In this document: positions 18,147 through 54,429 of the stretch, piece after piece
Position numbering within the stretch: the first letter of the stretch is position 1
Layout of the letters: every line of letters begins with the position of its first letter
Assembly: GCA_963714675.1 (NCBI GenBank)
Contig: CAVQPG010000016.1
Span: 10,988 to 74,987, forward strand
Direction of reading: 5' to 3'
Length of the DNA: 64,000 nt
Source of the DNA: an uncultured Chloroflexia bacterium
GTDB taxonomy: Bacteria > Chloroflexota > Limnocylindria > Limnocylindrales > CSP1-4
Notes under the pieces: generated by a model
The model's database searches: none
Seen by the model: the letters and a program-made list of their open reading frames with translations, nothing else
What the model was told of the DNA's origin: nothing
Translations under genes and position numbers: made by a program

Positions 18147-18198
18147 GCCCACTGACATGCGACAGCTGGTTCGTCGACAGGCTTCGGAGCCGCAACCC

Positions 18199-23693: not shown

Positions 23694-23718
23694 GCGACGA
23701 GAGGAGCGACTGAGACCG

Positions 23719-25481: not shown

Positions 25482-25805
25482 CGCCTGGATCGAGCGGGAG
25501 CGCAGAGGCCATGCCGCTCGTGGACTGGCAGTGGGTCACGGCCTGCCGACTCGTGGAGGCCGGTGCGGCTGTCATCGGCGACGAGGCCATGGTCGAGCTC
25601 ATCGCGGACCTCATCGACGCCCCTGTGCCGGTGGGTACGAGCCATTGGCTCGCGGGTACTCTCACGTGACATGTCCGACGGCCTCGACTCGCTCGTGGCA
25701 GCCCTTGACGCGGCGAGAGTCGATCACTAGGTGGCCGTTCGGCGCGACGGCAGCTGATCCTGCGGGGCCCCGGACCCGGCGGATTCACTGCGCCCGGACG
25801 ATGTC

Positions 25806-26213
25806 GTGGTCGGGACCGTCGAAGCCCCGAGTGCCTTCTGGGGCGAGCTGTTCTCGACGGCTGCCCGCGCCCGTGGCGCGGTCGGTGTCGTAGTCGACGG
25901 TCTCGTGCGGGACCAGGCTCGGATCAGGGAGCTCGGCTTCCCGGTCTACGCACGGGGCGCCCGGCCCACCGACAGCCTGGGGCGCATCTCCATCAAGGAG
26001 CGTGACACCACCATCGAGGTCGCCGGCGTCAGCGTCGCCACCGGCGACCTTGTGGTCGCCGACCTGGACGGCGTGGCGGTGGTGCCGAAGGAAGCGATCG
26101 AGGAGGTCGCCACGCGCGCGATCGAGAAGGCGACCACGGAGAACCGAGCCCGACAGATGCTCGAGGATGGTGCGTTCCTGCGCGACGCGTGGGACCGCTT
26201 CAAGGTGTTGTGA
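25806..26213 (+). pseudogene. 5'-truncated RraA-family gene (copy 2)
   Basis: The 135-aa ORF corresponds to residues ~86-220 of 20790..21452 (VGTVEAPSAFWGELFSTAARARG...). The N-terminal third is missing at the duplication boundary. Confidence 0.8.
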
Positions 26214-27093
26214 CCGACCTCGCCGGCATCTTCGCTCCCATCTGCACACCGTTCGACTCGAGGGAAGAGCTCGACCTTGGCGGCATGCGTGCGAACCTCG
26301 CCCGCTACGCCGAGGCGGGCATCCACGGTCTGCTCGCGCTTGGCAGCAATGGTGAGAACCGCAGCCTCGACGAGGCCGAGCGCCTCGAGGTGTTGGACAC
26401 GGTCGTTCGCCACAGGGGCGTCGGTCAGGTCGTCATGGCCGGTGCGACGTACGACGCTCAGCGTCCGGCGGAGCGCTTCCTGGCCGCCGCCGCTGACCTC
26501 GGCGCCGACTGCGCCCTCGTCCTCGCTCCTGGCTATCACCGCACGCAGATGACCGAGGACGTCCTCTATCGCTACTTCTCGACGCTCGCGGACGGATCTC
26601 CGCTGCCGATCCTGGTCTACAACGCCCCGGGCTTCAACGGCATCGTGCTCACGCCCGAGCTGGTCGGCCGGCTCGCCGGGCACGACAACATCATCGGCAT
26701 GAAGGACAGCGCATCGGCGGGCATCGAGGCGTTCCTGCCGCTACAGGACGCGAACTTCGCGGTGCTCGCCGGTTCGGCCAACTTCCTGTTCCGGGCCATG
26801 CTCGAAGGGTCGCCGGGCGGCACGGTGTCGCTGGCTGACTCGTTCCCGGCAGTGGCGCTGCGACTGTACGAGCTGGGCCTGGCTCGTGACGACCGTGGAT
26901 GGGCCTGCGTATCAAGAGCGGGTGTCCCGCATCAACCGCGCCATCTCGGGTGCCCACGGCGTGGCTGGCGTCAAGGCTGCCATGGACCTGGCTGGCTACG
27001 TGGGCGGCGATCCCTCGCCGGCCCCTACTGCCACTTGGGGAGGATGAACGCGATCGGTTGCGGGCCGCGTTGGAAGAAGAGGGGCTCCTGCTG
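26210..27093 (+). pseudogene. DHDPS/NAL-family protein (copy 2), about two frame breaks and no separate stop before the kinase ATG
   Basis: GTGA overlap as in copy 1. Frame switches are near 26890 and 26995. The tail ..PLLPLGEDERDRLRAALEEEGLLL runs in frame into MGADILALDV of the kinase (ORF 26899..28458). Confidence 0.7.
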
Positions 27094-28458
27094 ATGGGTG
27101 CGGACATCCTGGCGCTGGACGTCGGCACTTCCGGGCTCAAGGCCGGTGTCTTCGGGCCCGACCTCGACGAGCGCGTGGTCGTCAGCCGAAGCTACGAGAT
27201 CCGCGTGTCGGCCGACGGCGGGGCGGATGTGTCACCTGAGGCGTGGTGGGCCGCTATCGTCGATGCCTGCGCCGAGATCCGTCCGCATCTCGACGACGTC
27301 AACGTCATCGCCCTGTCGGTGACCACGCCCGGACTGACGCCGATGGCTGCCGACGGTCGAGCCCTCGGGCCGGCCATCCTGATGCTCGATGGTCGCGCCC
27401 ATGAGCAGGCGGCACGCATCCGGGCGGCCGTGGGCGAGGAGCGCTTCCTCGCGGAGGCCTGCAACCTGCCCGTGTCTGGCGGCTCCTCGCTCGCGAGCAT
27501 CCTCTGGATCCGCGACCACCAGCCCGAGGTCTGGGCTGCGGCCGCGATGTTCGGGCACACCAACACGTACGTGGCCAAGCGTCTCACCGGCGAGTGGGCC
27601 ATCGACCCCTCGACGACATCGATCACCGGTCTGTATGCCACCGCCCGCAACGACCTCTCATGGAACGACGACGTACTGGATGCCGCCGGTATCGAAGCGA
27701 GCCGACTGCCGAGGCTGATGCAGTCATTCGATCCGGTCGGGCAGATCCTCGCGGGCGCCGCCGAGGAGCTGGGCGTGCCCCCGGATGCCGTGGTCCTGTG
27801 CGGCGGCAACGACGCCTCGCTGGCGGCCTGGTCGGGCGGCCTGACCGAGCCCGGCGACGCCAACATCATCAGCGGCACCACGGACATCGCCAACGTCTGC
27901 ACCGATCGGCCGGTCGCGTCGCGCGACTTCAACGTCCGCGCTCATGTCTTGCCCGGCCGCTGGCTCACGTTCTTCGTGCTCAACACCGGCGGCGCGGCCC
28001 TCGACTGGTTCTGGCGGTCGTTCTGTCGCGAGATGAGCGCCGATGACTTCTATGGCGACTACCTGCCCACGACCCTGGCTTCCTTCCTGGACGACCCTGA
28101 CCTGGACGTGCGAGATGCCGGGCTACCCCGCTACGTCCCGTACCTGTCGGGGAGTCGCTATGCCGTGGAGCCGCTGACAGCGTCGTTCTCCGGCATCAGC
28201 CTGGGCACCTCCCGAGACGACCTGCTGCTCGGATTGGTCCGAGGCAATCTGCGCTATCTCGGCGAACATCTGGAGCACGTGCAGACGTTGATCGAGGTGA
28301 ACCACCGGGTCGGGATCAGCGGGGGAGCGGCCCGGATCGAGGGCATGCTCGCCGCGCGCCGCCGCTGGACGGGCGACTTCGACTACGTCTTCCAGGACCA
28401 GTCGTCGCTCCTGGGCGCGGCCATGCTCGGGCGCGTCTATCAAGACGGCGCAACGTAG
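27094..28458 (+). CDS. FGGY-family carbohydrate kinase (copy 2)
   Basis: ATG 27094. 454 aa, colinear with copy 1, intact. Confidence 0.85.
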   Translation: MGADILALDVGTSGLKAGVFGPDLDERVVVSRSYEIRVSADGGADVSPEAWWAAIVDACAEIRPHLDDVNVIALSVTTPGLTPMAADGRALGPAILMLDGRAHEQAARIRAAVGEERFLAEACNLPVSGGSSLASILWIRDHQPEVWAAAAMFGHTNTYVAKRLTGEWAIDPSTTSITGLYATARNDLSWNDDVLDAAGIEASRLPRLMQSFDPVGQILAGAAEELGVPPDAVVLCGGNDASLAAWSGGLTEPGDANIISGTTDIANVCTDRPVASRDFNVRAHVLPGRWLTFFVLNTGGAALDWFWRSFCREMSADDFYGDYLPTTLASFLDDPDLDVRDAGLPRYVPYLSGSRYAVEPLTASFSGISLGTSRDDLLLGLVRGNLRYLGEHLEHVQTLIEVNHRVGISGGAARIEGMLAARRRWTGDFDYVFQDQSSLLGAAMLGRVYQDGAT

Positions 28459-28483
28459 GTAGCACGAGGAGCGACCGAGACCG

Positions 28484-29329
28484 ATGGCAGCGACGAAGAC
28501 GATGGTGGCCGAGGCCATGAAGGGCGGGTATGCCGTGCCCGCGATCAACGTCGTCAACCAGTTGACGATGGAGGCGGTGCTGGCGGCAGCGCAGGAGGCG
28601 CGCAGCCCCATGATCGTGCAGACCTCGGTCAAGACCGTCCGCTCCATCGGGCTCCCGGTCCTGAAGGCCATGTGGGACACGACCTCCACGACCGTCGACG
28701 TCCCCGTCGCGCTCCACCTCGACCACTGCCCCGACCGCGAGGTCATCAGCGCCTGCCTCGCTGCCGGCTGGGACTCGGTGCTCTTCGACGCCCACGAGCT
28801 GTCGGTCGAGGAGAACGAGCGCCAATGCATCGAGGTCGTGGCCGAGGCGCGACGGTACGGCGCCGACGTCGAGGGTGAGATCGAAGGTATCCGCGGCGTC
28901 GAGGACGGCATCGGCTCCGACGACGAGGGCCCCATCCAGACGCTCGGCGTCGCGGTCGGCTTCATCGAGCGCACGGGTGTCGACATCTTCGCGCCCGCCA
29001 TCGGCAATGCCCACGGCATGTACGCGGCACAGCCGACGCTCGACCACCAGCGCATCAGCGACCTCGTGGAGGCCACCGGTATCCCCATGGCGCTCCATGG
29101 GGGCACGGGCCTGTCCCCCGACCAGTTCAGCGACCTTATCACCCGTGGCTGCGCGAAGGTGAACGTCTCGACGGCGCTGAAGATCGCCTTCATGGAGGCC
29201 AGCCGCGCCTATCTGACCGAGCACCCTGACGCGGCCGACCCGCCGGCGCTCTTCAGCTTCGTGCGCGATGCGGTGATGGACATGGCCCGTACCCACATCC
29301 GTCTCTTCGGTGCCGAGGGCAAGGCATGA
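28484..29329 (+). CDS. class II ketose-bisphosphate aldolase (copy 2)
   Basis: 281 aa, with the same motifs as copy 1. Intact. Confidence 0.85.
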   Translation: MAATKTMVAEAMKGGYAVPAINVVNQLTMEAVLAAAQEARSPMIVQTSVKTVRSIGLPVLKAMWDTTSTTVDVPVALHLDHCPDREVISACLAAGWDSVLFDAHELSVEENERQCIEVVAEARRYGADVEGEIEGIRGVEDGIGSDDEGPIQTLGVAVGFIERTGVDIFAPAIGNAHGMYAAQPTLDHQRISDLVEATGIPMALHGGTGLSPDQFSDLITRGCAKVNVSTALKIAFMEASRAYLTEHPDAADPPALFSFVRDAVMDMARTHIRLFGAEGKA

Positions 29330-30101
29330 CCGCACTCATCTTCGACTGCGACGGCGTCCTCGCTGACACCGAACGATACGGGCACCTGCCGGCGTTCAAT
29401 CAGACCTTCCGTGAGTTCGGCCTGCCCGTGCAGTGGACCGAGGAGGAGTACGGGGCGGCCCTCCGCATCGGCGGTGGCAAGGAGCGCATGGCCTCGCTGC
29501 TCACGCCCGCGTTCGTGGCCGAGGCCGGTCTGCCGACCGATGCGGAGGGCCAGGCGGCAGAAGTGGCGAAGTGGCACCAGCGCAAGACCCAGTTGTATGT
29601 CGAGATGGTCAGGGCCGGCGAGCTGCCGCCGCGTCCGGGCATCGCCCGCATCGTGGCCGAGGCGCGCGCCGTCGGGCTGGCAGCTGGCGGTCTGCTCGAC
29701 CTCGGCCGAGCCGTCGGTGCGGGCCATCCTCGAGAACGCCGTCGGGGCCGAGGCAGCAGCCGGGTTCCTCGATCCTCGCCGGCGACGTGGTACCGGCCAA
29801 GAAGCCGGCCCCCGACATCTACCTGCTGGCACTCGAGCGGCTCGGTGTCGCACCGACCGAGTGCGTCGTCGTCGAGGACTCGCGCAACGGGCTGCTGGCG
29901 GCCACCGCAGCCAGTTTGGCCACGGTCGTCACCGTCAACGGCTATACCCGCGACGAGGACTTCAGCGAAGCCGCCCTGGTGGTCTCGTCGCTGGGCGATC
30001 CCGACAGTGAGCCCATCGAGGTCCTGGCGGACCGGGCCGATGTGCGGCCGGGTGCGTTCATCGTGCTGTCCGACCTCCATGCGTGCGTCGGCCATGTCTA
30101 G
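29326..30101 (+). pseudogene. HAD-superfamily phosphatase (copy 2), two frame breaks, native C-terminus retained
   Basis: FDCDGVLADTE is in ORF 29326, ..GWQLAVCSTSAEPSVRAILE.. is in ORF 29411, and ..LAGDVVPAKKPAPDIYLLALERLGV...RPGAFIVLSDLHACVGHV-stop is in ORF 29433. Switches are near 29680 and 29765. Confidence 0.75.
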
Positions 30102-31581: not shown

Positions 31582-32241
31582 CTATCGCGGGGACGCGGCC
31601 CCGATGATGCGATCTAGGCCAGCAGCGCCTGCGCCACGATTGGCCGCGGTGGCGGCATCCTTGGCGAAGCCGTCGGCCCCGATCTCGGCCGCGAACTCGT
31701 CGGTCACGGGGGCCCCGCCCACGAGGATCTTGGCCCCCGGGTCGGCGGCCCGCACGGCCTCGACCGCGGCCTTCATGCCCACCATCGTGGTGGTCAGCAG
31801 GGCGCTGATGCCGACGATGTCGGCGCCGTGCTCCACCGCCGCCTCGGCGAAGGCCTCGGGGCTGACGTTGGTGCCGAGGTCGACGATCTCGAAGTTGGCG
31901 CCTTTGAGCATCATGCCCACGAGGTTCTTGCCGATGTCGTGGAGGTCGCCCTGCACGGTGCCGATGACGGCGGTGTGCTCGGGCCGGATGCCGCCCGCCG
32001 CGAGCAGCGGCTCGATGAGCACGGTGGCCTCCTTCATGGCGTGCGCGGCGATGAGCATCTCGGGCACGTAGACGCCCTCGTTGCAGGCGAACTTGCGGCC
32101 CACCTCGGTCATGGCCACGGTCATGGCGTCGAGGATGACCTTGGGCCCGACGCCCTCGTCGATGGCGGCCTGGGTCAGCTTCACGGCGCCGGCACGGTCG
32201 CCGGCCTCGACGGCGGCGGTCAGGGCAGCTAGGTCGGCCAT
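31582..32241 (-). CDS. corrinoid methyl-carrier protein (copy 2 of the near-identical pair)
   Basis: 219 aa with DxHxxG (GDLHDIGK) and ILVGGAPV. It lies downstream of the URO-D-family gene 32340..33423. The 3' end is uncertain (alternative-frame TAG at 31614). Confidence 0.85.
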   Translation of the reverse strand: MADLAALTAAVEAGDRAGAVKLTQAAIDEGVGPKVILDAMTVAMTEVGRKFACNEGVYVPEMLIAAHAMKEATVLIEPLLAAGGIRPEHTAVIGTVQGDLHDIGKNLVGMMLKGANFEIVDLGTNVSPEAFAEAAVEHGADIVGISALLTTTMVGMKAAVEAVRAADPGAKILVGGAPVTDEFAAEIGADGFAKDAATAANRGAGAAGLDRIIGAASPR

Positions 32242-32258
32242 GGGTGGTGCTCCTCTCT
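31614..32258. repeat. 0.64-kb dispersed repeat, copy 2 (pairs with 9432-10075)
   Basis: See copy 1. Confidence 0.8.
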
Positions 32259-32339
32259 GGTGGTGGGCTGCAGCGGAACGGTTGGTCAGGTTCGTGTCGG
32301 TCTTCGCATCAAGCCGCCGGTACGACCGACGGAGTTGGC

Positions 32340-33423
32340 CTAGGTCGGGTACCTCCCGTGCTCCTGCACGGTCTCATACAGGGCGATGAGGTTCTCGATC
32401 GGCGTTTCGGGCAACACGTAGTCGTGGCTGGGTGAGGCGACATAGCCCCCTCCGGGCATCATGACATCCAGGACCTCGCGCGTCTTGGTCCTCACCAGGT
32501 CGGGCGTGCCCTGGATCAGGACGAACTGGGTATCGATGCAGCCGTTCATCAGGATCTTGTCGCCGAACGCGGCCTTGAGCTCCGCCGGCTCCATACCCCT
32601 CGCCGATGGCTGCAGCGCCTGCAGGCCATCGAGGCCGGACTCGATCATCGCGGGGATGAGGGGCGCGAAGCCGCCGCAGCAGTGCATCATCACCTTGAGC
32701 CCGTAGTCGTGGCCCAGGTCCGCGAGGCGTTTCAGGTGCGGCGCGAAGAAGCGTCGGAACGTGGCCTCGCTCATCAGCGGCCCGTTCATGCCGCCGAAGT
32801 CGTTGCCGATGAAGAAGATGTCGATGAGGTCGGCCGCGGCGTCGAAGATGCGCTGGCTGACCCCGAAGTAGTAGTCCACGATGTGCTCGAGCAGGGCATC
32901 GACCAGCTCGGGTTGCTCGTACATGCTGACGAGCAGCTCCTCCATGTCGAGCAGGTCGATGGCGTCGTGCCAGAACGGGGACCAGTCGCCTCCCAGGATC
33001 GCGTACTCCCCCTGCCAGGCTTCGATCTCGCTCCTGATGCCGGCCGCACTCATCCAGGCTGGATCGGGCCAGGGATAGTCGTGCACGTCACTCGAGCGTG
33101 GCGCCAGCCAAGGGGTGACTTCGGGGCATGCCCCAACCGTAGCCGTGGCGTTCCACCCCGAACGGCGACCGATACGTGGAGCCAGGGGCCAGGTTCGCAT
33201 CGGGGCCGTGCTCGATGGGGCCCGCATAGGTCGCGTGCACGCGCCGGAAGTCGTCTCCGAGGAAGACCGAGAGCGCTTCGTCGCTCGCCAGGCCCAAGTG
33301 GTCGATCATGGCCTCCCTGGTCTCGGGGGCAGCACCGAACCAGGCCGGCACGCGGTCTGGCTCCTCGAAGGCGAAGGCCGCCAACACGCGGTCCCTCGAT
33401 GTCATGGAGCTGTGGCCGGGCAT
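32340..33423 (-). pseudogene. URO-D-family (MtaA/CmuA-type) methyltransferase, frame broken once
   Basis: ATG 33423 follows AAGGAGGA (MPGHSSMTSRDRVLAAFAFEEPDRVPAWFG.., frame of ORF 33088..33915). It continues in ORF 32340..33227 from ..DVHDYPWPDPAWM.., with the switch at about 33100. It has an H-C-C-G motif (VMMHCCGG). Confidence 0.8.
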
Positions 33424-33476
33424 CGGTTCCTCCTTGCTACGCGGACCCGTGCGTGGCCCACGTCCCTCGCGGGCCG

Positions 33477-35184
33477 CTAGAACAGTCCCACCGGCTTGCC
33501 GTACTCGTCGATGTCGACGTTGTTCCCGGCGGGCTGGCTGGGCAGGCCGGGCATGGTGCGCATGTCGCCCGCGAGCGGGTAGATGAAGCCCGCTCCCGCG
33601 GCGAGCTTCACGTCGCGGATGGGGACGCGGAAGCCGCTCGGGCGGCCGAGCAGCTTGGGGTCGTGTGAGATGGACAGGTGCGTCTTGGCCATGCACACCG
33701 GCAGGTGGCTGTAGCCGAGGCGGTCGTACTCGGCGAGGGCCTTGGCCGCGGCCGGCGCGATAGTCCACGCCGTCGGCGCCGTAGACCTTGACCGCGATGG
33801 TCTCGATCTTGTCGGGCAACGACATCTCGTCGGGGTAGAGCAGCCGGAAGTCGCTCTCTTCGTCGCAGGCGTCCCAGACGGCGGCGGCCAGCGCCTCCGC
33901 ATCCGGCACCGCCATCGGCCCAGTGCGTGGTCACCACGGCGTCACGCGCGCCGGCCGCCAGGGCCACCTCGCGGATGGCCTCGAACTCGGACTCGGCGTC
34001 GCCGGGGAAGGCGTTGGTGGCCACCACCACCGGCACGCCGTACTGGCGCACCATCTCGATGTGCGCCGCGAGGTTCTCGCCACCGACGCGCACCGCCTCG
34101 GGGTTCTCCTCGAGGAGCGCCGGGTCGAGCGGCTTGCCGGCCACGATGGTCCCGACACCGCCGTGCATCTTGAGCGCCCGGACCGTGGCCACCACGACCG
34201 CACAGTCGGGCGCCATGCCCGAGGCCCGGCACTTGATGTCGAAGAACTTCTGTGCCCCCATGTCCGCGCCGAAGCCGGCCTCGGTGACGACGATGTCGAC
34301 TGGTGGCGAGCGCCACGCGGTCGGCCAGGATGGAGCTGTTGCCGTGGGCGATGTTGGCGAAGGGGCCAGCGTGCACGAACGCCGGCCCGCCCTCGAGCGT
34401 CTGCAGCAGGTTGGGCTTGATGGCGTCGAGCAGCAGCACGGTCATGGCACCGGCCACCTGCAGGTCTTCCGCGGTCACGGCCTTCGCCCGAGCGATCGGT
34501 GGCCATGACGATCCGGCCCAGGCGTGCGCGCAGGTCGAAGACGTCGGTCGCGAGCGCGAGGATGGCCATGACCTCGCTGGCCACGGTGATGACGAACTCG
34601 CTCTCGCGGGGCACACCGTTGAGCCGACCGCCCAGGCCGATGTTGACGTTGCGCAGGGCCCGGTCGCTGATGTCCACGACCCGCGGCCAGCGGATGGAGA
34701 AGGGGTCGATGTCGAGCGGGTTGCCGTGATGGAGGCTGTTGTCCAGGAACGCGCTCGCGAGGTTGTGCGCGGCACCGATGGCGTGCACGTCACCGGTGAG
34801 ATGGAGGTTGAAGTCCTCCATGGGGATGACCTGGCTGTAGCCGCCGCCGGCCGCGCCGCCCTTGATGCCGAAGACCGGACCGAGGGATGGCTGACGGATG
34901 GCCACGGCGGCTCGATGGCCGATGCGGTTGAGCCCCTGCACCACGCCCACGGTGGTGGTCGTCTTGCCCTCGCCGAGCGGCGTCGGCGTGATGGCGGTCA
35001 TGACCACGTACTTGCCGCGCGGGTTCTCACGCTCCACGCGCTCGAGGCCCTCGAGCGTGACCTTGGCCTTGGTGACGCCGTAGCGTTCGATCTCGTCTGG
35101 CCGCAGGCCGAGCTCGGCGGCGATGTCGTCGATGGGGCGGGGGGTGACCGAGCGTGCGATGTCGAGGTCGGTCATGGCGGTCAT
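33477..35184 (-). pseudogene. fhs: formate--tetrahydrofolate ligase, at least four frame breaks
   Basis: ATG 35184 follows AGGAGA. The P-loop block [13 protein letters not shown], then [10 protein letters not shown], then the C-terminal MAKTHLSISHDP...GFIYPLAGDMRTMPGLP are spread over ORFs 33931..35277, 33942..34793, 33608..34261, 33088..33915 and 33477..33902. Switches are near 34495, 34310, 33925 and 33775. Confidence 0.85.
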
Positions 35185-35212
35185 CGTATTCGTCTCCTGC
35201 GGCTCGGGGTGG

Positions 35213-36105
35213 CTAGGCGGTGCGGACGGACGGCGCGCCCACGGCGACCTGGCGGGTGGCCTGGTCGCGCGCGGCACGCATGAGATGGGTGAGCAGGATG
35301 GCGTTGGTCAGCGGGCCGACGCCGCCGGGCACGGGCGTGATGGCCGAGGCCACCTCGACAGCTGATTCGAAGTCGACGTCCCCGACGAGCGTGTCGCCGA
35401 CGACGTTGATGCCCACGTCCACGACCACGGCGCCGGGCTTGAGCATGTCGCCGGTCACCAGCCGTGGGCGGCCCACGGCCACGACCACCACGTCCGCCTG
35501 CCGCAGGACGGCCGCGAGGTCGGGCGTGCGCGAGTGGCACATGGTCACGGTCGCGTGCTCGCGCAGGAGCAGCTGCGCGGCCGGCTTGCCGATGACGTTG
35601 GAGCGACCCACCACCGCGGCGTGCTTCCCGGCCAGCTCCACGCCCGAGCGCTTGAGCAGCTCCACCGAGGCGTGAGCCGTGGCGGGCAGGTAGCCCTCGT
35701 AGCCGAGCGCCAGCAGGCCCGCGTTCAGGGGATGGATGCCGTCGATGTCCTTGCGCGGGTCGAGCGTGTCGAGCACGATGCGCAGCGGGATACGCTCGGG
35801 GAGCGGCTGCTGGACGATGATGCCGGCGACCTCGCGCTCGGCCCCGAGGGCGCCGATGGCGCGGGCCAGCTCCTTCTCGGTACAGTCCCCCTCGAGCTCC
35901 ACCAAGCCGTCCGCTCGATGCCGACCTTGCGGCAGCCCGCGACGATGCGCTCGAGGTAGACCATCGAGGGCGCATCGGCACCGGCCACCACCACGGCCAG
36001 CTCCGGGGTGTAGCCGAACTGGTCCTTGAAGGCCGCCACGTCCGCGGCCACACCTTCACGGATCTCAGCGGCGACCGGTCCCCCCTTGAGCAGCTCGGCG
36101 GTCAT
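35213..36105 (-). pseudogene. folD: bifunctional methylene-THF dehydrogenase / methenyl-THF cyclohydrolase, frame broken once
   Basis: The N-terminus is in ORF 35725..36105. The rest is in ORF 35213..35905 ([28 protein letters not shown]). The switch is at about 35910. Confidence 0.85.
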
Positions 36106-36129
36106 CGCTGTCCTCCCTGCGCGCCCCGG

Positions 36130-37168
36130 CTACGACAGCTTGCCGGCGCGGAACGCCTCGATGAAGCCCATGCCGTAGGCGTCTTCGCCGGTCAGCATGG
36201 CCCTGGCCAGGACGTAGGCCTCCGATTCGCGGTCGGGGTTCAGCGCCGCGGCCACGTCCGCGACCGGGTCGATGATGCCACTGTCCTGGCCGGCTTCGAC
36301 GCAGAGGTCGAGGAAGACGTCGCTGATGATGCGCCGGGCCGGCAGGCCGAAGCTGATGTTGCTCACGCCGCCGGTGATGTGGACCTCGTCGCCGAAGCGC
36401 TCGCGGATGGTGCTGACGGCATCGAGATAGGCCTGGCCGGCCATGGGGTCGACGCCGATGGGGATGACCAGCGGGTCCACGTGCAGCGAGGTCTCCGGCA
36501 GGCCCAGCTCGAGGGCCATGCCGATGATCTGCTCGGCCCGCTCGACGCGATCCTGCGTGCCCGAGGGCATCGACGCGCCGGTGCACGAGAGCACGACCGG
36601 CGTGCCGCGCTCCTTGACCAGCTCCAGCACCTCCGGTCGCTCGGTGGAGGCGGAGTTGACCATCGGCGTGGCGCCAGCGGCCCAGCCGGGATCGACCGCG
36701 TCGAGGCCGGCTTCGAGCACCGCGGCGTCGGAAGAGTCGATCGACAGGGGCACGCTCGAGGCGGGACCGACCGCGGCCACCAGCCACTGCATGGCCTCGA
36801 GCCGGCCGTCGACCTCGGAGCTGATCTCGTCCACGTTGAGGTCGAGGTAGTCGGCGCCACCGGCGATCTGCCGCTCGGCCATCCAGGCCACGTAGCGGGC
36901 GGCGGCATCCGCCTGCCTCGCCGCCGGCGAGGCCCTGGCGCACCGCGGCCATGACGTGCTTGATGCGCTCGCTCGTCGTGAACTCCTTCGACTCGAGGAT
37001 GGAGTCGGGGAGGGGGACCCACGACTCACCGTCCCCGTCCGGGAAGCGGATACCGGGCCGGCCGTCGGGGGCCACGCCGCCACGGACACCCTCGCGCTTG
37101 ACGATGCGGCTGCAGTGGATGTTCTCGCCGATGATGATGAACTCGGTGCCGCCGACGGCCTGCTTCAC
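36130..37168 (-). pseudogene. pterin-binding methyltetrahydrofolate:corrinoid methyltransferase (CmuB/AcsE/MetH-pterin-domain-like), frame broken once
   Basis: GTG 37168 follows AAGGAGA and overlaps the metF-like stop (GTGA). The N-terminus FIIIGENIHCSRIVK is in the frame of ORF 36065..37423. The barrel (GADYLDLNVDE, PLSIDSS, ITGGVSNISFGLP) is in ORF 36130..37089. The switch is at about 36925. Confidence 0.75.
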
Positions 37169-38652
37169 GCTTGCTCTCCTTGCTTGTCTCGGGCGTAGTG
37201 GTCGCGCCCCAGGAACGTGTTGGCCCAGGCGCTGGTGCCGCGCAGGGCGTTGTCGCCGATGACGGGTGCGCGATCGAGCATGGTCATGGCCTCGCCGTAG
37301 GGGCGCAGCCGGTCGTAGGCGACCGACCAGACACAGGGCTTGCCGGGCACCTCGCATTCGCCGTCGATGGAGCCGCCACAGGGGCCGTTGCGCTGGTTCT
37401 TGGCGCAGGCACCCTCGGGGCACTGGTAGGCGATGTCGGGCAGCGAGCAGTCACCGCAGTCCTGGCAGTCGAACATGGGGATCTTGACCGCCTGCTCGAG
37501 GACGTGAGCGGGCCACATCAGGTGGGCCGACTCCAGGGCACCGTAGAAGCGCCGCCCGAGCGCGAAGCCCCTCGACTCGGGCTCGAAGGCGACGTCATGG
37601 ACGAGGCGGTTGAAGCGGTACCCCAGCGGCACGCGCTTGGTCCGGGTCGGTGGCGTGGGCACGGCCGAGGCCAGCTGCGGCAGGTCGCCCTGCTGGTACA
37701 GGCGGTGGGGGTCGGCCTCGGGGTAGTGGATGTCGGGCAGCAAGGCCGCCAGTCGGACTGGAACTCGTCAGCCATGCCCAGGACCTTGTCGATCTCGGCA
37801 GTGTTGCGCTGGCCCGCGATGTAGGCGCCGGCGAAGCCCATGCCCCGCACCACGGCCACTTGCTTGGCCGCGAACTCGAGGAAGGCGGCTCGGCCCTTGT
37901 CGTCGGCCGCGGCCTGCTTCTGGGCCCAGGCCAGCTGTGCCTCGTTGAGGCGGATGCCCGGGACACCGTCGCGATCGAAGACCGAGGCCACGCCCTTGGA
38001 GAGGATGTACACCGAAGCCATCAGCGGGATGGGCTGCAGCTGCTCGGCGTTCCACTGCAGCAGCTCCGACCACGAGCGGGTGTCGTAGCCGACCTGCGTG
38101 ATGGCCACGTCAGCACCGGCGCGGATCTTGAGTGCCAGCTTGAGGTACTGCGGGACCAGGTCCGACTCGAGGGCCTTGAAGGGATTGATCGCGCAGCCGA
38201 TGGTGAAGCTCGGTCCGTACCGGCCGGCGTCGCGCAGCATCGAGATGAGCCCCACCGAGTCGATGTCGAAGACCGCGCGCGAGCGGCCGCCGAAGCCCTC
38301 CTTGGGATAGTCACCCGAGAGCGCCAGCGTGTTGGTCAGGCCTTCGCTCGCGAGGCCGTAGACGGTGGACTGGAGGGCCGCTCGGCTGCGATCGCGGCAG
38401 GCCAGGTGGACGACGCACTCGCCGCCCATGCCCTGGATGGCCTGGCCGAGGGTGAGCGGGCCGAGGCGCACGAAGCCGCCGGCGTTGTCGGTGACGGTGA
38501 GGGCGGTGACGCGCTCGTCGACGGTCAGCTCGCGAGCGGTCTCGCGGTGGCGCTCGCCGGCGTCGTCCTGCAGCGGGCCGGCCCAGGGCACCAGCTCCAC
38601 GAGCGTGGTGCTGCCGTCGTTGCGTGCGAGAGATTCCGCGAATGCGCTCATC
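37165..38652 (-). pseudogene. metF: methylenetetrahydrofolate reductase fused to a Cys-rich MetV-like C-terminal domain, frame broken once at the domain junction
   Basis: ATG 38652 follows GGAGGA. The MTHFR blocks (VHLACRDRS, LALSGDYP) are in ORF 37518..38744. The C-terminal domain (CQDCGDCSLPDIAYQCPEGACAKNQRNGPCGG) is in ORF 37165..37743. The switch is at about 37745 (..ADEFQSDWR / LLPDIHYPE..). Confidence 0.7.
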
Positions 38653-38715
38653 GACCCTTCAGTCCTCCACGAGCCTGTCGGCCCGACTCGCACGGTAGTG
38701 TCCACGCGACCCTCA

Positions 38716-38729
38716 GTCAACCGGTTGAC
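38716..38729. promoter_or_regulatory. LacI-type operator, perfect palindrome GTCAACCGGTTGAC
   Basis: It lies 64 nt upstream of the metF-like start codon, in the gap after the URO-D gene 38822..40081. Identical 14-mers occur at 55584 and 56748, and a one-mismatch copy at 59103. Confidence 0.6.
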
Positions 38730-38821: not shown

Positions 38822-40081
38822 TCAGCGGTACTCGTCGACCGCTTCGTACATGGCCTCGATGTTCTCGGGTGGGATGTCCGGGAGCATGTTGTGGGCGGTG
38901 GCGAAGACGAATCCACCACCCGGCGCCAGCGCCTCGATGTTGCGCCGGACGTGGTCGCGCACCTCATCGGGCGTGCCCCGGGGCAGCACCTTCCGCGTGT
39001 CGGCACCGCCGCCCCAGAAGGTGATGTCATCGCCGAAGGCCCGCTTGAGCTTCTCGGGCTCCATGTCGCGGGCGCTGATCTGCACCGGGTTGAGGATGTC
39101 CACGCCGGTCTCGATGATGTCCGGCAGCAGGTCATAGAGCGACCCGCAGCTGTGCAGGAACGTCTTCATCGAGCTGCGCTCGTGGACGTAGGCATTGAGG
39201 GCGGCATGGCGTGGCTTGAAGATGGCGCGGTAGGTGTCGGGCGACATCAGGGGACCGTTGTCCATGCCCAGGTCATCGCCGAAGCGCACGATGTCGACCA
39301 GGTCGCCGACCGACTCGATGACGTGGTCGAGCGTTTCGAAGTGCACCTCCAGCAGCGCGTCGAGCAGGCGCTCCACGTTGGCCTGATCGACCACCAGGTC
39401 CATGAGGAAGTTGTCGATGCGGCGCAGGAACGTGCCCCACTCGAAGAGGTTGCAGCCGACCACCACCATCAGTGCCCGGTCGGTCGACGCACGCAGCGCC
39501 ATCGTCCGGGTTCGCAGCGTCTCCCAGAATCCCTCGTCGCCGGCGTGATCCCAGGGGCTGTGGACGAGCCCCGACCAGAGCACCAGCGGCATGACCCGGG
39601 GCAGGTCCGTGAGGTCGTCGGGATAGCCATCGAGGTAGGGGAAGTAGGTCTGGTCGAAGAAGGCGGCACCCTTGGGCATGGCCGCGATGCGCAGTCCCTC
39701 GTCGGTGAAGGCCTCGAGGGCGCCGTCCGGCTGCAGCACCGGGTCGAACCAGACGGGGATCTCGGTGGCGACGCCGCTGGGCAGTGTCAGCGGCTTCCAG
39801 TCGGCGTCGTCGGCGTCGAACGTGCGGCCGATGTCCACCGCGTCGATGCGCAAGCGGTCGAGCAGCTCGTCCGACGGTTGGGCCAGCTGCTGCACGACGT
39901 CGTACACGCGCGTGCGCTGGTCGGCGGTTCCGAGGTGCCTGACCAGGTTGGCATGGGCGACCGCGGAGATGCCCGAGCTGGGGTTGGAGCCGAGGTCGAC
40001 CGCCAGCCGGTCCGGCTCACGATGCTCGATCGTCGCGAGGACGCGCTCGCGCGCGGTCATCGCTGTTCCCGGTTCGGCCAT
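38822..40081 (-). CDS. URO-D-family (MtaA/CmuA-type) methyltransferase
   Basis: Intact ORF. I prefer ATG 40081 (MAEPGTAMTARERVLATIEHREPDRLAVDLG) after GGAGGA rather than 40096. It has an H-S-C-G motif (FLHSCGS) and the family C-terminus ..PPENIEAMYEAVDEY. Confidence 0.8.
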   Translation of the reverse strand: MAEPGTAMTARERVLATIEHREPDRLAVDLGSNPSSGISAVAHANLVRHLGTADQRTRVYDVVQQLAQPSDELLDRLRIDAVDIGRTFDADDADWKPLTLPSGVATEIPVWFDPVLQPDGALEAFTDEGLRIAAMPKGAAFFDQTYFPYLDGYPDDLTDLPRVMPLVLWSGLVHSPWDHAGDEGFWETLRTRTMALRASTDRALMVVVGCNLFEWGTFLRRIDNFLMDLVVDQANVERLLDALLEVHFETLDHVIESVGDLVDIVRFGDDLGMDNGPLMSPDTYRAIFKPRHAALNAYVHERSSMKTFLHSCGSLYDLLPDIIETGVDILNPVQISARDMEPEKLKRAFGDDITFWGGGADTRKVLPRGTPDEVRDHVRRNIEALAPGGGFVFATAHNMLPDIPPENIEAMYEAVDEYR

Positions 40082-40162
40082 GTCTCGCTCCTCCATCGTT
40101 CATGCGGTCCCGTCGTCCGGCGATAGCAGCCAGGGTCCGCTCCCGGCCTGCTCAGGGTTTGA

Positions 40163-40928
40163 TCAGCCCATCCAGGCACCGCCGGTCACGTTCACGATGG
40201 CCCCGGTCATGAAGCTGGCATGGTTGGAGGCGAGGAAGACCGCGACCGCTGCCACCTCGGCTGGATCGGCTTGGCGGCCGAGTGGCGTGCTCTCGACGAA
40301 CGCCTGCGTTGCTGGCGTAAATCCGGCACGCTGCATGGGTGTGTCGACGATGCCGGGTGCGATGCTATTCACGCGGATGCCGTGGGGGCCGAAGTGCCGC
40401 GCCATCGCATACGTGAGCGAGATGATGCCGCCCTTGGATGACGCGTACGCCGGTGCCGAGCTGGGACCGCCGGTCGTTCCCGAGAGTGAGCTGAAGGTGC
40501 AGATGCTGCCGTCCGCCCCGGTCTGACGCATATGCTCTCCGGCGACTCGCGCCAGGAAGAAGGTGGACTTCAGGTTCGTGTCGAGCTGCCAGTCCCAGGC
40601 TGCCTCGCTCACGTCCTCGAAGGGCTCGCGCTTGAACACGCCCGCCGCGAGCACGACGGCACGGACATCACCCAGGTTCGTCGCTGCAGCCTCGACCAGG
40701 TCAGCGTGGGCCCCCAGATCGTTCACATCGACGCTCACGGCCTGGTGCGGCCCTCCAGGTAGTGAGTCGACCACGGCGCATACGTCGACGCGCTTCAAGT
40801 CAACGGCACAGACCCGAGCACCGACCGCGGCGAATGCTCTGGCGCTGGCCTCGCCGATGCCCGAAGCAGCGCCGGTGACGATGACACCGTGGGAGCTCGA
40901 GACCCCAGCCTCCGCGCGTGCCGTCCAC
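40163..40928 (-). pseudogene. short-chain dehydrogenase/reductase (SDR), frame broken near the 5' end
   Basis: The body is in ORF 40163..40798 (catalytic YASSK). The cofactor motif VIVTGAASGIG is in the same frame upstream, but has no start codon. The GTG at 40928 (VDGTRGGWGLEL..) is one frame off, and removing one C at about 40875 joins them. Confidence 0.7.
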
Positions 40929-40935: not shown

Positions 40936-41698
40936 TTAGGAGCCTTCGGTGGCGAGCCGCAGGTCGTCGGCGACAGCGCTGAGATGTGCAGACATCTCCT
41001 CGCGCGCCCGCTCCGGGTCACGCTTGCGGAGCGCCTCGACGATGCGGCGATGGCCATCGATCCCGTGATCGGGTCCGAGCCTGGTCTTGGCGACCTTGCG
41101 GCGCAACTCGATCTGGAGCTCCGCGACGGAACCCAGGACGATGACGTAGAGGGGGTTGTGTGCGGCCTCTGCGAGGACCATGTGGAACTCCAGGTCACGA
41201 TTGACGAGTGCCGTCGGTGTCTGCCATGGAGGTAGCCGATTCGATGACCAGGACTTCGAGCTTCTCGATCTGCTCGTCGCCAGCACGCGTGGCGGCATGT
41301 GCCGCGATCTCCGGCTCCAGCCCGGATCGCAACTCCATGAGATCGACGATCGAGACGACGCTGCCCCCGATCACCGATACGAGTTCCGGGTCGATGAGGC
41401 GCCAGCGCTGTCGAGGGGTAACGCGCATGCCTGAGCCTTGCACGACCTCGACCAGCCCCTTGGTGCTGACGATGCGGACCGCTTCCCGGACCGCAGACTT
41501 GCCCACCGAGTACTCCCGCACCAGCTCCGCTTCGGTCGGCAGCAACGTGCCTGCTTCGAGGTCACCTTCGACGATCTGGCGGATGAGGCGGCTGGCGATC
41601 TGGTCCGGTATCCGGGTGCGCTGCACGGCTGATGCCGAGCGGGCCGGTGTCCGCTCGCTACCGAGGGTGGCGGACCCCGGAGGGCGTGGCCCAGTCAA
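40936..41698 (-). pseudogene. GntR/FadR-family transcriptional regulator, frame broken once
   Basis: The winged helix (PTEAELVREYSVGKSAVREAVRIVSTKGLV) is in ORF 41195..41698. The FCD domain tail (DLEFHMVLAEAAHNPLY..) is in ORF 40936..41298. The switch is at about 41235. Confidence 0.75.
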
Positions 41699-43217
41699 GC
41701 GAGGTCCTTCATGATCTTCTCGCTGATCTCGTCGTAGACGCGCGAGTTCTCGATCTCGGCCACGATGCGGCCGCCTTTCATGACCAGGATGCGATCAGCG
41801 AGCCGGACCATCTCGGGCATGTCGCTGGAGATCAGCAGGATGGCCTTGCCCGACCGGGCCAGGTCCCAGATGAGCTCGTGCAGGGCGTCCTTGGTCTTGA
41901 TGTCGATACCGATGGTGGGTTCGTCGACGATGAGGATGTCGGCCTCTGCGGCGAGCCACTTGGCGATGCTGACCTTCTGCTGGTTGCCGCCGCTGAGATT
42001 GCCCACGGTCTGCTCCAGCGACGGCGTGCGCACGTCGAGCTCCTCGGCATACTTGGCGGCGATCGCCCGCTCCTCGGCGCCGGGCACCCAGCCCAGAGCG
42101 CGGGATAGGCGACGCCACAGGGTCACCGAGATGTTGAAGATGATGTCCTTGTCCAGGATCAGCCCGTCGTTCTTGCGATCCTCGCTGACATAGCCGATGT
42201 GATAGCGGCCCAGCGCTTCGGCGACACTGCCGATCCTGGCTTCCTTGCCGTTCACGAGCGATGGTGCCGCCGGTGACCTCGACTGGCGCCGATGACGGCG
42301 TGGGCGAGCTCGGTGCGCCCCGCGCCAACCAGTCCATACAGGCCCAGGATCTCGCCGGGGAAGACCTCCAGGCTGGCTCCCACGACGCCGTCGATGGTGT
42401 CCACGTCGCTGAGCGTGAGGGCGGCCTGATCGCCCCTTGGCGGTCGCTCCGGCAGGTCGGCATCCTTCCTGGTGCGACCGATCATCCACGAGACGAGCTG
42501 GTCGCGGGTGAGGCCCTCCAAGCGGTTCGCCGGAAGCTACGTTCTTGCCGTCACGCAGGACCGTCACGCGGTCGCATAGCTCGAAGACCTCTTCCAGCTT
42601 GTGCGTGACTACGAGCACGGCCACGCCGCGATCGCGCAGCGAGCGCAGGATCTCGAAGAGGTGCGCGGCCTCGTGCGGGGTGATCGAGGCGGTGGGCTCG
42701 TCGAGCAACAGCACCCGGCTCTCCAGGGCCAGGGCACGCACGATCTCGACCTGCTGCATCTCCGCGGCAGAGAGCCGAACAGCCTGCCGGGTCACGGGAA
42801 TGTCCAGGTCCATGACTTCCAGCCAGCGGGCGGCCTCGCGGTTGACGGTGTCGTAGTCGACGAAGACCGAGCCGCGCAGGGGCATGCGCTCGATGAGGAT
42901 GTTCTCGCCGACCGAGAACTCGGGGATGAGGTTGCGCTCCTGGGGCACCGAGGCGATGCCGGCTTCGATCGACTCGCGCGGGTCTGCCGAACTGGACGTC
43001 CTGGCCGTCCATGCGCAGCGTTCCGCTGTCCTGGCCATAGAGGCCGGTGATGATCTTGATGAGCGTCGACTTGCCGGCGCCGTTCTCGCCCACGAGGGCG
43101 TGGATCTCGCCGCCCTTGAGCTCGAGCGAGACAGTCGTCCAGGGCCTGCACGCCGGGGAAGGCCTTGCTGACGCCCATGGCCTCGAGCGCGACCGTGTGT
43201 CGCAGCTGGTCGGTCAT
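41695..43217 (-). pseudogene. two-domain sugar ABC transporter ATP-binding protein, about five to six frame breaks
   Basis: The ATG 43217 segment [28 protein letters not shown], Walker [13 protein letters not shown] (ORF 42551..43093), LLLDEPTAS, the second Walker A GLVGAGRTEL (ORF 42252..42521), and LSGGNQQK/IVDEPTIGID (ORF 41695..43038) lie in different frames. Confidence 0.8.
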
Positions 43218-43218
43218 C

Positions 43219-44213
43219 TCAGCGTCCTCTGCGGGCACGCCCGACCTGGTGGCCACGTGGCTGGCATAGACGGTACCGAGGATGAACAGCCCGAGCAACA
43301 GCTCCACGTAGATGGGGTCGATACCGAGGTGCACGAGCGAGTTGTCGATGATGGCGATGATGAGCGCCGCAAGGATGAGGCCGATGATGCGCACCGATCC
43401 TCCGGTCAGCGCCACGCCGCCGATGATGGGCACGGCGAAGGAGACCAGCAGCCAGGACTGGCCGATCTGGGGCTGAGCTGCGCCCAGCTGCGCGGCCCAG
43501 AGCATGCCCGCACGCGCCCGCCAGCAGTCCGGAGATGACGTGCGCCCAGACGATGCGCCGGCCCACCGGGATGCCCGCTGTCTGGGCGGCGCCGAGGTTG
43601 CCACCCACGGCCAGGATCTGGCGTCCCACCAGCGTGCGGTAGAAGAACACCGCGAGGGCACCCAGGGTCGCGAGCGTGATGAAACCCATCAGCGGGGAAG
43701 AAGCCCAGGCGGGCCTGGCCGAAGGCCGTGAAGCCCAGCATCGAGGTCGTAGTACGGCTGGGCGTTGGTGATACCCAGGGTCAGCCCCAGGAAGACGCTG
43801 GCGGTGGCGATGGTCACGATGAAGGCATTGAGGCCCGTGCGCGCCACGATGATGCCGTTGAGCGCGCCGCAGGCCGCGCCGGTAGCGAGGCCCCCACCGA
43901 TAGCCAGCCACACCGGCAGGCCCCAGGCGTCCATGATGCCGCCCGCAGCGATGGCGGCGAGGCCGCCGATGCCGCCGACCGAGAGGTTCATCTGGCCGAT
44001 CGACAGGACCGTCATCTGCGCGGCTCCGATGAGCACCGCTGTGGCCACGCTGCGCAACACCACGAAGACGTTGAAGTCGGACAGGAACGAGTCCGACATG
44101 AACGACATCATGACCACGATCACGATGAGGATGGTCAGCAGGCCGGCCCAGCTGTACTGCGACAGCCTCGAGATCCAGCGGCGCCCGTCCGCCATCGATG
44201 CCGACCGCGTCAC
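43219..44213 (-). pseudogene. sugar ABC transporter permease (CUT2), at least three frame breaks
   Basis: Hydrophobic segments are split between ORFs 43689..44213, 43219..44223 and 42792..43661. Confidence 0.7.
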
Positions 44214-50287: not shown

Positions 50288-50407
50288 CCAGCGTTGCACC
50301 GCGCCCGTTTGCCAGCAAATCATCGGGTGATAGGATGAATACTATCCAAGGCGACCGCGCTCTGCCGGCTGGATCACGTCGGATGGCCGCACTGACAGGA
50401 GGAGTCG

Positions 50408-51329: not shown

Positions 51330-51369
51330 AGCCGCACCCTATCTGACGACTCGAGGAGGCTGCGCAGCA

Positions 51370-53682: not shown

Positions 53683-53705
53683 GGTGTGTATGTACCCCCG
53701 TTCGC

Positions 53706-54356: not shown

Positions 54357-54429
54357 GGCAGGCCCAGCCTGTGGGCCCGCGTGCTTGCGGTATCCATGCG
54401 TCATCCTTCCGACGCGGCGCTCGAGATCG

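Follow-up and report, generated by a model that had tools for sequence, protein, structure and literature searches.

The stretch of DNA analysed here (the window, 64 kb, ~68% G+C) carries on its minus strand, between positions 40096 and 31582, a block of seven genes predicted to pass methyl groups from corrinoid to tetrahydrofolate (THF) and to oxidise them to formate. Genes were called using Pfam on the open reading frame (ORF) pieces of the window and NCBIfam on the intact orthologues of a related locus, L001. In order of transcription the block holds mt414, encoding a putative substrate:corrinoid methyltransferase (MT I), metFV, the gene of a pterin-binding methyl-corrinoid:THF methyltransferase (MT II), folD, fhs, urod360, and cpB (Table 1). 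An earlier reading of this DNA from its letters only (the sequence-only reading) had described the last six of these, and the gene order, identities, and coordinates it gave are borne out to within 1 nt by Pfam and NCBIfam. The intact mt414 gene directly upstream of metFV is absent from its gene list. The GTG start of the MT II gene overlaps the stop of metFV by 4 nt (GTGA), as had been claimed, the gaps between genes of the array are 24–170 nt, and urod360 and cpB are separate genes 98 nt apart. A single transcription unit is argued for because of the 4 nt overlap, the size of the gaps, and the conserved synteny.

Table 1. Genes of the methyl-transfer block and related features, by position in the window, with the basis of each call and the state of its reading frame
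Feature	Position	Strand	Basis and reading frame
URO-D-superfamily corrinoid methyltransferase mt414, putative MT I	38822–40096	-	Pfam URO-D; intact
MetF-MetV fusion (metFV)	37165–38651	-	PF02219 + PF12225 (DUF5981 / 'MTHFR C-terminal'); frame-broken, 1 nt missing at ~37742–37747
Pterin-binding methyl-corrinoid:THF methyltransferase (MT II)	36130–37168	-	PF00809; frame-broken, extra A at 36914
FolD (methylene-THF dehydrogenase / methenyl-THF cyclohydrolase)	35213–36105	-	PF00763 + PF02882, two frames; 2 extra nt at 35909–35913
Fhs (formate-THF ligase)	33477–35184	-	FTHFS profile; frame-broken, single extra nt at 34484, 34299, 33900, and 33763
Second URO-D-superfamily corrinoid methyltransferase urod360	32340–33423	-	Pfam URO-D; frame-broken, extra C at 33094
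Corrinoid protein cpB	31582–32241	-	PF02607 (B12-binding_2) + PF02310 (B12-binding); extra T at 31639, C-terminal tail altered
Paralogue pair 1, corrinoid protein	424–1086	-	Pfam
Paralogue pair 1, URO-D methyltransferase	1086–2279	-	Pfam
Second cpB copy, 98.8% identical	9431–10082	-	self-BLAST, Pfam, alignment
URO-D methyltransferase paralogue	19700–20714	+	URO-D profile positions 3–346 over both pieces; frame-broken at ~20010
URO-D methyltransferase paralogue, similar to mt414 and to the URO-D protein of locus L021	46890–47777	+	Pfam URO-D; frame-broken
Paralogue pair, URO-D methyltransferase mt395	52498–53715	-	Pfam, NCBIfam
Paralogue pair, corrinoid protein cpA	53718–54356	-	Pfam, NCBIfam
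SDR	40163–40798	-	Pfam
GntR/FCD regulator	40936–41698	-	Pfam; broken
Double-ABC ATPase	41695–43218	-	Pfam; broken
Two BPD_transp_2 permeases	43134–45130	-	Pfam; one broken
Peripla_BP_4 sugar-binding protein	45326–46284	-	Pfam

Species-representative genomes were scanned with the pterin-binding protein, giving 17 loci. Each belongs to an uncultured member of the Chloroflexota that carries the label 'Chloroflexia' or 'Candidatus Limnocylindrales', and most are MFD metagenome-assembled genomes (MAGs); the source organism of the window is a Limnocylindria-like member of the Chloroflexota. Locus L001 has 95.5% nucleotide identity with the window over 40071–31611, and in it all seven genes are single open frames. 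The metFV and MT II genes are adjacent in every one of the 16 related loci long enough to show the pair, and no other part of the cluster is as well conserved. They are followed by folD and fhs in 9 of the 16 (the contig of L005 ends within folD, only folD being visible there) and then by a corrinoid gene, with or without a URO-D gene, in 5. Upstream of metFV, mt414 is found in 8 related loci; in L001 the mt395 / cpA pair is directly upstream of mt414. The cluster is therefore no chance juxtaposition. Intact MT II homologues of ~345 aa number in the hundreds in metagenomes. MT II homologues at 64% identity (L018 and L019) are encoded beside an RACo activase, DUF1638, a corrinoid protein, and a URO-D methyltransferase, without metF.

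Other genes recur around the cluster in these relatives. DUF1638 is encoded beside a corrinoid protein in L007 (10796–11533), L018, and L019 and was not found in the window. It would seem to have an accessory part in methyltransferase systems of this kind. In L006 a second, divergent metFV (48% identical) with a pterin methyltransferase gene (29% identical) lies on the opposite strand directly after fhs (13468–15939). Genes for the alpha and beta parts of a thiamine pyrophosphate-dependent E1 dehydrogenase, fused or split and sometimes with a DeoR regulator, recur beside metFV-MT II or a corrinoid methyltransferase system. They are present in the window at 50400–52400, where they are heavily frame-broken, and in L003, L008, L011, L013, L016, L018, and L019. 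L008, which has a contig name that points to a short-read assembly, also has a Meth_synt_2 (core-MetE-like) gene at 5059–6072, upstream of the E1 alpha/beta genes and metFV-MT II.

MT II matches NF005719, the methyl-THF:corrinoid/Fe-S protein methyltransferase domain (E 1e-50). Its best relatives in the PDB by sequence are 4O0Q, 4O1E, and 4O1F (E 4e-27), followed by MeTr and MetH folate domains. An AlphaFold (AF2) model built on 32 homologues has a predicted local distance difference test score (pLDDT) of 92, and Foldseek places it closest to the same three entries (1e-17), then to MeTr (3e-16), the MetH folate domain (3.5e-15), and true dihydropteroate synthase (DHPS; 3e-8). These entries, from Desulfitobacterium hafniense and either apo or with THF or methyl-THF, are titled 'methyltransferase component involved in O-demethylation'; the molecule name given in 4O0Q, 'Dihydropteroate synthase DHPS', is misleading beside that title. 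By sequence and by predicted structure, the pterin-binding protein groups with the corrinoid:THF methyltransferases and not with DHPS. A DHPS identity was rejected, its Foldseek match being ten orders of magnitude weaker than that to the O-demethylase MT II, and the corrinoid methyltransferase proposed in the sequence-only reading is thus upheld over a DHPS by profile searches, structure prediction, and Foldseek. AcsE proper was likewise rejected at 93.5 bits against a cut-off of 370, with neither CODH/ACS (carbon monoxide dehydrogenase together with acetyl-CoA synthase) nor the corrinoid iron-sulphur protein (CoFeSP) found in Pfam scans of the window. The score is well below the NCBIfam MetH cut-off too. 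The MT II family has a ~40-residue beta insertion after the first barrel strand, which the solved relatives are without.

The remaining THF genes can be identified with similar clarity from their intact orthologues. In metFV, MetF and a Cys-rich MetV-like C-terminal domain are encoded in one polypeptide; the L001 orthologue is an intact 495 aa protein with methylene-THF reductases (MTHFRs) as its PDB relatives. Judged on the MetF-MetV domain fusion, the protein fits the Fe-S 'type 3' MTHFR (PMC11868366). The two FolD domains are split over two frames in the window, and the L001 orthologue matches the NCBIfam FolD models at E 1e-87. Five ORF pieces, lying in three frames, cover positions 2–556 of the FTHFS profile one after another, and the L001 Fhs scores 783 bits on NF010030 against a cut-off of 652. 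These matches support the view that the block encodes every step from methyl-corrinoid to formate, through MT II, MTHFR, FolD, and Fhs. No PurU or formyl-transferase domain was found in Pfam scans of the window, in agreement with the earlier suggestion that Fhs stands in the place of PurU.

The two URO-D proteins of the block are members of a broad superfamily. UroD proteins comprise thiol methylases together with MT I enzymes for O-, S-, and halogen-demethylation (PMC10418091, PMC13222342). The AF2 model of mt414 (pLDDT 85) has MtaA (4AY7/4AY8; E 5e-14) as its best Foldseek match, then URO-D decarboxylases (1e-9), then MetE. For urod360 the best PDB match by sequence is also MtaA 4AY7 (E 5e-10), and the URO-D proteins are distant from all solved structures except MtaA (sequence E 5e-10 and 5e-6). 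On TIGR01463 (mtaA_cmuA), where the cut-off is 235 bits, the three URO-D proteins score 80 (urod360), 58, and 35, which on these profile scores places them within the superfamily and outside the MtaA/CmuA family. None matches Meth_synt_2 or S-methyl_trans in Pfam or NCBIfam. The URO-D proteins have ~70–100 extra residues and an H-x-C...H motif, with H303-x-C305 and H390 of mt414 invariant in 31 homologues. The H-x-C aligns with that of MtaA, and a His occupies the position of the downstream MtaA Cys in mt414, urod360, and mt395. The zinc ligands of MtaA are H-x-C...C.

The corrinoid protein cpB has the DxHxxG cobalamin motif (as DLHDIG) and matches NCBIfam corrinoid-protein models at E 1e-40 to 1e-43. 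An exact-protein look-up of the window protein returned no record, which fits its altered C-terminus. There are six URO-D genes and four corrinoid genes in the window (Table 1). When compared as partners for mt414, all four corrinoid proteins are about equally similar to corrinoid proteins of other loci. Beside the second cpB copy is a URO-D gene fragment (9145–9367), 220 nt of which are 78% identical to 20296–20510 in the middle of another URO-D gene. The region 9145–10082 looks like the remnant of another methyltransferase and corrinoid protein pair or an assembly duplication.

All four THF genes had been reported as frame-broken in the sequence-only reading. These breaks are all real in the sequence, and they are more numerous than claimed, being present also in urod360 and in the tail of cpB. 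In an alignment of the window with L001 and seven other relatives, every coding frame break is an indel of 1–2 nt found only in the window among the 9 genomes. In cpB the extra T rewrites the last residues only; without it the stop would fall at 31614. Frameshifts are the only lesions of the block, which is free of nonsense codons and in-frame indels. Removal of the extra nucleotides and filling of the missing one restores full-length proteins with no internal stops that are 96.6–98.6% identical to those of L001 (97.0% for metFV and 97.5% for fhs). With L002 as outgroup, the window branch has 60 synonymous and 24 non-synonymous substitutions (71% synonymous), 62 of the 84 being at third positions, and the L001 branch has 155 and 45 (Fisher p = 0.29). 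Both are far from the neutral expectation of ~27% synonymous (p = 3e-17). Purifying selection has acted on the window lineage in the same way as on the intact relative.

Breaks of this kind are found throughout the window. The neighbouring, unrelated xylA has three 1 nt insertions unique to the window (31169, 30506, and 30171) and is intact in L001, L002, and L010. Coding-frame segmentation and Pfam continuity revealed 20 or more additional breaks, spread over at least 14 unrelated genes, among them ABC ATPases, permeases, binding proteins, an IlvD/EDD dehydratase, a HAD phosphatase, an SDR, an aldehyde dehydrogenase, the E1 dehydrogenase, an amidohydrolase, and two more URO-D genes. Sibling Nanopore MAGs have 0–3 comparable breaks in the aligned region, with one each in L003 and L012 within the metFV-to-fhs alignment, and tblastn found further split genes in L002, L003, L006, L011, L012, and L014. 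No breaks were found in L005, L008, and L009, where contig names point to short-read assemblers. The MFD MAGs are from the Microflora Danica long-read catalogue, which is Nanopore-only and was assembled using Flye with one round of Medaka and without short-read polishing; Nanopore-associated errors are reported by its authors in low-coverage MAGs (PMC12313526).

It is therefore very probable that the frame breaks are assembly errors in an error-rich stretch of a long-read assembly and not signs of a dead module. This is the best reading because the indels are found only in the window, L001 is intact, the frames repair cleanly, substitutions are biased towards synonymous sites, breaks occur across the window, and the relatives are Nanopore-only. 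The functional uncertainty attached to the breaks in the sequence-only reading is largely removed, since they are specific to the window, spread through it, and absent from the orthologues.

Taken together, it is probable that the block is a functional operon of a living organism, damaged in silico, and that it encodes a three-component system of MT I, corrinoid protein (CP), and MT II leading to formate, likely as a common sink. In such a system a zinc-type URO-D methyltransferase (mt414 and/or urod360, acting as MT I) would take the methyl group from an imported methylated substrate and pass it to Co(I) in the corrinoid carried by cpB, the small B12 protein. MT II would then transfer the methyl group from methyl-Co(III) to THF. 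The MetF-MetV fusion would oxidise methyl-THF to methylene-THF at the expense of an electron acceptor, FolD would generate 10-formyl-THF, and Fhs, working in reverse, would release formate with the gain of one ATP. Bacterial clusters of a corrinoid methyltransferase, a corrinoid protein, and a THF methylase carry methyl groups from a donor to THF, and the THF methylase is usually encoded with the corrinoid protein (PMC10418091). The only MT II, MetF, FolD, or Fhs within the 64 kb is that of this block. Since six MT I candidates and four corrinoid proteins share the window with this sole set, the block is probably the common sink for the MT I paralogues, and the same suggestion in the sequence-only reading is reasonable.

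Several observations weigh against this interpretation. The indels lie outside homopolymers, the classic Nanopore failure. A common sequence context around them was sought by eye, and neither homopolymers nor a convincing motif were seen. The breaks are patchy, at ~1.3 per kb in the block and ~0.4–0.5 per kb elsewhere. The extra T at 31639 is also present in the second cpB copy (9431–10082) and, because it is common to both corrinoid gene copies, may be a real feature that does no harm. The curated MtaA/CmuA cut-off is not reached by the URO-D proteins. Searches by tblastn with the L018 RACo and DUF1638 proteins found nothing in the 64 kb; a copy of the RACo/RamA activase may be elsewhere in the genome. 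Neither a formate dehydrogenase nor a partner serving as the MetFV electron acceptor was seen in the window. Every enzyme of the THF branch is reversible, so that the direction of flux rests on context.

Were the frame breaks real, the strain would have a recently inactivated and decaying methyl-oxidation module, which is very unlikely. There are nine breaks in 7 kb with none in a homopolymer, at a density above the window average, and one indel is common to two paralogous copies, all of which speak for decay; the segmental duplications and the gene fragment in the window suggest rearrangement as well. Decay is difficult to reconcile with a block having frameshifts and no nonsense codon or in-frame indel, and with substitutions that are as often synonymous in the window lineage as in the intact relative. 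Equivalent breaks in transporters, xylA, and dehydrogenases bring the proportion of affected genes in the window to ~40%, and decay on this scale in a free-living bacterium whose 95%-identical relatives are intact is implausible. The Nanopore data type is, in addition, known for such errors (PMC12313526).

If the operon is intact, its enzymes could instead run in the biosynthetic direction, with Fhs, FolD, and MetFV converting formate to methyl-THF, the pterin methyltransferase loading the corrinoid protein, and a zinc URO-D/MetE-like methyltransferase methylating a thiol such as homocysteine. This split, corrinoid-protein-dependent methionine synthase is unlikely, even though all of the THF steps are reversible and some relatives of MT II, namely the MetH folate domain and AcsE, operate in this sense. 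Split MetH and core methionine synthases fed by a corrinoid protein are documented (PMC7857596), and the URO-D-type methyltransferases have the fold and HxC zinc motif of the thiol-methylating MtaA and MetE. That metFV-MT II is the best conserved pair of the cluster and that L008 has a Meth_synt_2 gene just upstream of it would also fit. The presence of six URO-D and four corrinoid proteins in a 64 kb catabolic island is, however, better suited to substrate-specific MT I than to one housekeeping synthase, and five further independent contigs have methyltransferase and corrinoid protein pairs tied to ABC transporters for sugars and to catabolic regulators. Distant MT II homologues are found with RACo, a corrinoid protein, and a URO-D protein among sugar-acid genes, without metF. 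A canonical split MetH was rejected, there being no S-methyl_trans or Meth_synt_2 domain in the URO-D proteins of the window. The least probable of the alternatives, and very doubtful, is that the URO-D and corrinoid protein pairs are methyl-sulphur or methyl-selenium enzymes of the MtaA-like (Mlp) type, unrelated to the sugar genes and merely close to the THF module. The thiol methylase MtaA is the best neighbour of the URO-D proteins in both structure and sequence, and Mlp clusters that include corrinoid proteins occur widely among bacteria; by definition, however, a type 1 mlp cluster has a Ram activase and no THF methylase within 20 kb (PMC10418091). Here the THF methylase gene is between two URO-D genes, no Ram was found in the window, and the gene spacing and conserved synteny argue for one transcription unit. 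A functional operon for demethylation remains the preferred interpretation.

Upstream of mt414 the co-directional array extends to ~46.3 kb, with genes for an SDR, a GntR/FCD regulator, and a ribose-type ABC transporter (from Pfam and the ORF list; Table 1); this extension had been overlooked in the sequence-only reading. The ABC ATPase ORF at 41695–43038 has a ~95-residue stretch rich in Arg, Pro, and Gly between two well-conserved ABC halves; this has the appearance of a segment read out of frame, with a compensating frameshift at either end. Rfam at gathering thresholds found no cobalamin riboswitch, THF riboswitch, or other RNA, and a tRNA search found none. Scans for sigma-70 promoters and intrinsic terminators between 31.0 and 46.8 kb returned nothing, a result that is uninformative for Chloroflexota.

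The window as a whole is a carbohydrate island, with all six URO-D methyltransferase genes among sugar transporters and sugar-acid enzymes (Pfam). This sugar-gene setting is the new part of the interpretation. There are at least three ribose-type ABC systems, an SMP-30 lactonase, MR/MLE and IlvD/EDD dehydratases, RraA-like and DHDPS-like aldolases, an FGGY kinase, a class II aldolase, a HAD phosphatase, and a xylose isomerase. GFO/IDH/MocA oxidoreductases, a xylose-isomerase-like TIM-barrel protein, and GntR/FCD and LacI regulators are also encoded. The pair at 424–2279 adjoins the SMP-30 lactonase, an SDR, the MR/MLE dehydratase, and an ABC transporter, while the URO-D gene at 19700 is upstream of the RraA-like and DHDPS-like aldolases, FGGY kinase, class II aldolase, and HAD phosphatase. 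Five independent contigs (L020–L024), one of them labelled Caldilineaceae, carry mt414 homologues that are 64–77% identical. In L020–L023 the order is permease, Peripla_BP_4 sugar-binding protein, ATPase, URO-D methyltransferase, and corrinoid protein, which matches the window in placing the transporter before the URO-D and corrinoid genes, variously with genes for rhaM mutarotase, L-fucose isomerase, RbsD/FucU, FAA hydrolase, epimerase/dehydratase-like, and GFO/IDH/MocA proteins. L024 has rhaM, a URO-D methyltransferase, a corrinoid protein, and a short pterin-binding methyltransferase. A rhaM homologue is present in the window at 60049–60369. Likewise, the MT II homologues of L018 and L019 are among sugar-acid genes, in L018 also with an apionate lactonase.

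The recurrence of this sugar-gene linkage in five independent contigs suggests methylated sugars as the methyl donors. It is possible, and put forward here tentatively, that the URO-D and corrinoid protein pairs are previously undescribed zinc- and corrinoid-dependent demethylases of imported methylated sugars, sugar acids, or cyclitols, with the methyl group oxidised through the THF module. The demethylated sugar would be fed into the catabolic pathway encoded nearby, with the methyl group retained on THF. Methylated sugars, and 6-deoxyhexoses in particular, form an unproven candidate substrate class; candidate donors are 2-O-methyl-L-fucose, O-methyl-rhamnoses, 2-O-methyl-xylose, 4-O-methyl-glucuronate, and pinitol. 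A less likely variant would have S-methyl sugars, for example methylthioribose, as the donors. In the literature searched on carbohydrate demethylation, only an O2-dependent cytochrome P450 acting on 6-O-methyl-D-galactose was found, which is oxidative and releases formaldehyde (PMC6292453), and no corrinoid-dependent demethylation of a sugar or cyclitol. The system proposed here would differ from the P450 in being a non-oxidative methyl transfer that keeps the methyl group on THF.

Further features of the island are of note in their own right. In the region 52498–60369, the mt395 / cpA pair is followed by genes for GFO/IDH/MocA, LacI, xylose-isomerase-like TIM-barrel, class III aminotransferase, amidohydrolase_2, and rhaM-like proteins, and after these for an SBP_bac_1 transporter. 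By analogy this set is reminiscent of the breakdown of inositol, inosamine (rhizopine-type), or amino sugars, where a step of demethylation would be reasonable. A 4.3 kb segmental duplication of 90% identity (21021–25285 and 25782–30052) contains the RraA-like aldolase, DHDPS-like aldolase, FGGY kinase, class II aldolase, and HAD phosphatase genes; the second copy has a truncated RraA-like gene and a frame break in its HAD gene. Between an ABC permease gene and the URO-D gene at 19700 is a plus-strand ORF of 451 residues (18187–19539) with good coding statistics and no Pfam match at E <= 1e-5.

If the proposed pathway is correct, abundant soil and sediment Chloroflexota (Limnocylindria-like and Caldilineae-like) turn substrate-bound methyl groups into formate and ATP through B12 and folate, without oxygenases. 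This would add a new lineage and a new gene organisation to the known corrinoid demethylation systems, and would mean that one MT II and one-carbon (C1) module can serve many substrate-specific methyltransferases. The literature found on this module in Limnocylindria is limited to a general remark that Limnocylindria MAGs carry corrinoid methyltransferase genes. The sugar linkage provides a testable candidate for the demethylation of O-methylated sugars from plants and microbes in settings that preclude the O2-dependent P450s, and would tie soil carbohydrate turnover to B12 demand and C1 (formate) fluxes. The window is also a clear case of apparent pseudogenes in a long-read MAG that should not be taken as biology.

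The sequence-only reading likened the block to the chloromethane (cmu) pathway of Methylorubrum extorquens CM4. The logic is shared, in that a methyl group passes from corrinoid to THF and on to formate with the folate enzymes encoded nearby. The architecture differs, however, CmuA being a fusion of MT I and a corrinoid domain that are encoded by separate genes here, and the cmu pathway ending in PurU, which hydrolyses without the gain of ATP, in place of Fhs. CmuB is MtrH-like rather than a PF00809 protein. The URO-D proteins score below the MtaA/CmuA cut-off, as described above. The CM4 MTHFR is a single-domain, methyl-THF-oxidising type 4 enzyme (S6MTHFR-like; PMC11868366) as opposed to the MetF-MetV fusion. 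The earlier interpretation is therefore partly supported, being right in substance, with the cmu label an analogy only.

A dedicated methyl-THF oxidation module beside a demethylase is already established by the ligM-metF-ligH operon of Sphingobium lignivorans SYK-6, where a methyl-THF-forming demethylase and an MTHFR that oxidises its product are encoded together (PMC11868366). LigM is corrinoid-independent and GcvT-like and the SYK-6 MTHFR is of type 4, unlike the proteins of the window. LigH is a formyl-THF synthetase, which would make the use of Fhs in place of PurU not new.

Greater likeness is seen with the corrinoid demethylases, in which MT I O-demethylases and dehalogenases of the UroD superfamily are organised with a CP and an MT II (PMC13222342). 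The O-demethylases of acetogens and D. hafniense (with MT I such as OdmB, VdmB, and MtvB) likewise have a separate UroD-superfamily MT I, CP, and pterin-barrel MT II, and in addition an activating enzyme. The D. hafniense MT II is the best match to that of the window in both sequence and structure, and in both systems the methyl group ends on THF. They differ in that the MT I proteins of the window have MtaA as their nearest solved protein, its MT II has the ~40-residue beta insertion, no activase was found in the window, the context is of sugar and not aromatic catabolism, and the host is an uncultured member of the Chloroflexota. The Cdm system of Acetobacterium dehalogenans has the same layout (CdmB as MT I, CdmC as CP, and CdmA as MT II) and feeds methyl-THF into the central C1 pathway (PMC13222342). 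No sequence match to CdmB-type proteins was obtained, and CdmB is without zinc and has a hydrophobic haloalkane tunnel (PMC13222342), whereas the URO-D proteins here retain a putative zinc motif. For the folate steps, the Wood-Ljungdahl methyl branch (Fhs, FolD, MetFV, and AcsE/MeTr), which is reversed in methylotrophic acetogens, has the same enzyme set including the Fe-S MetV partner, and there too a MeTr-like pterin methyltransferase joins THF to a corrinoid protein. In the window MetF and MetV are fused and the corrinoid partner is a small MtaC/MtgC-like protein. The closer model for the block is thus a three-component system of the O-demethylase, Cdm, or Mtg type combined with a reversed Wood-Ljungdahl methyl branch.

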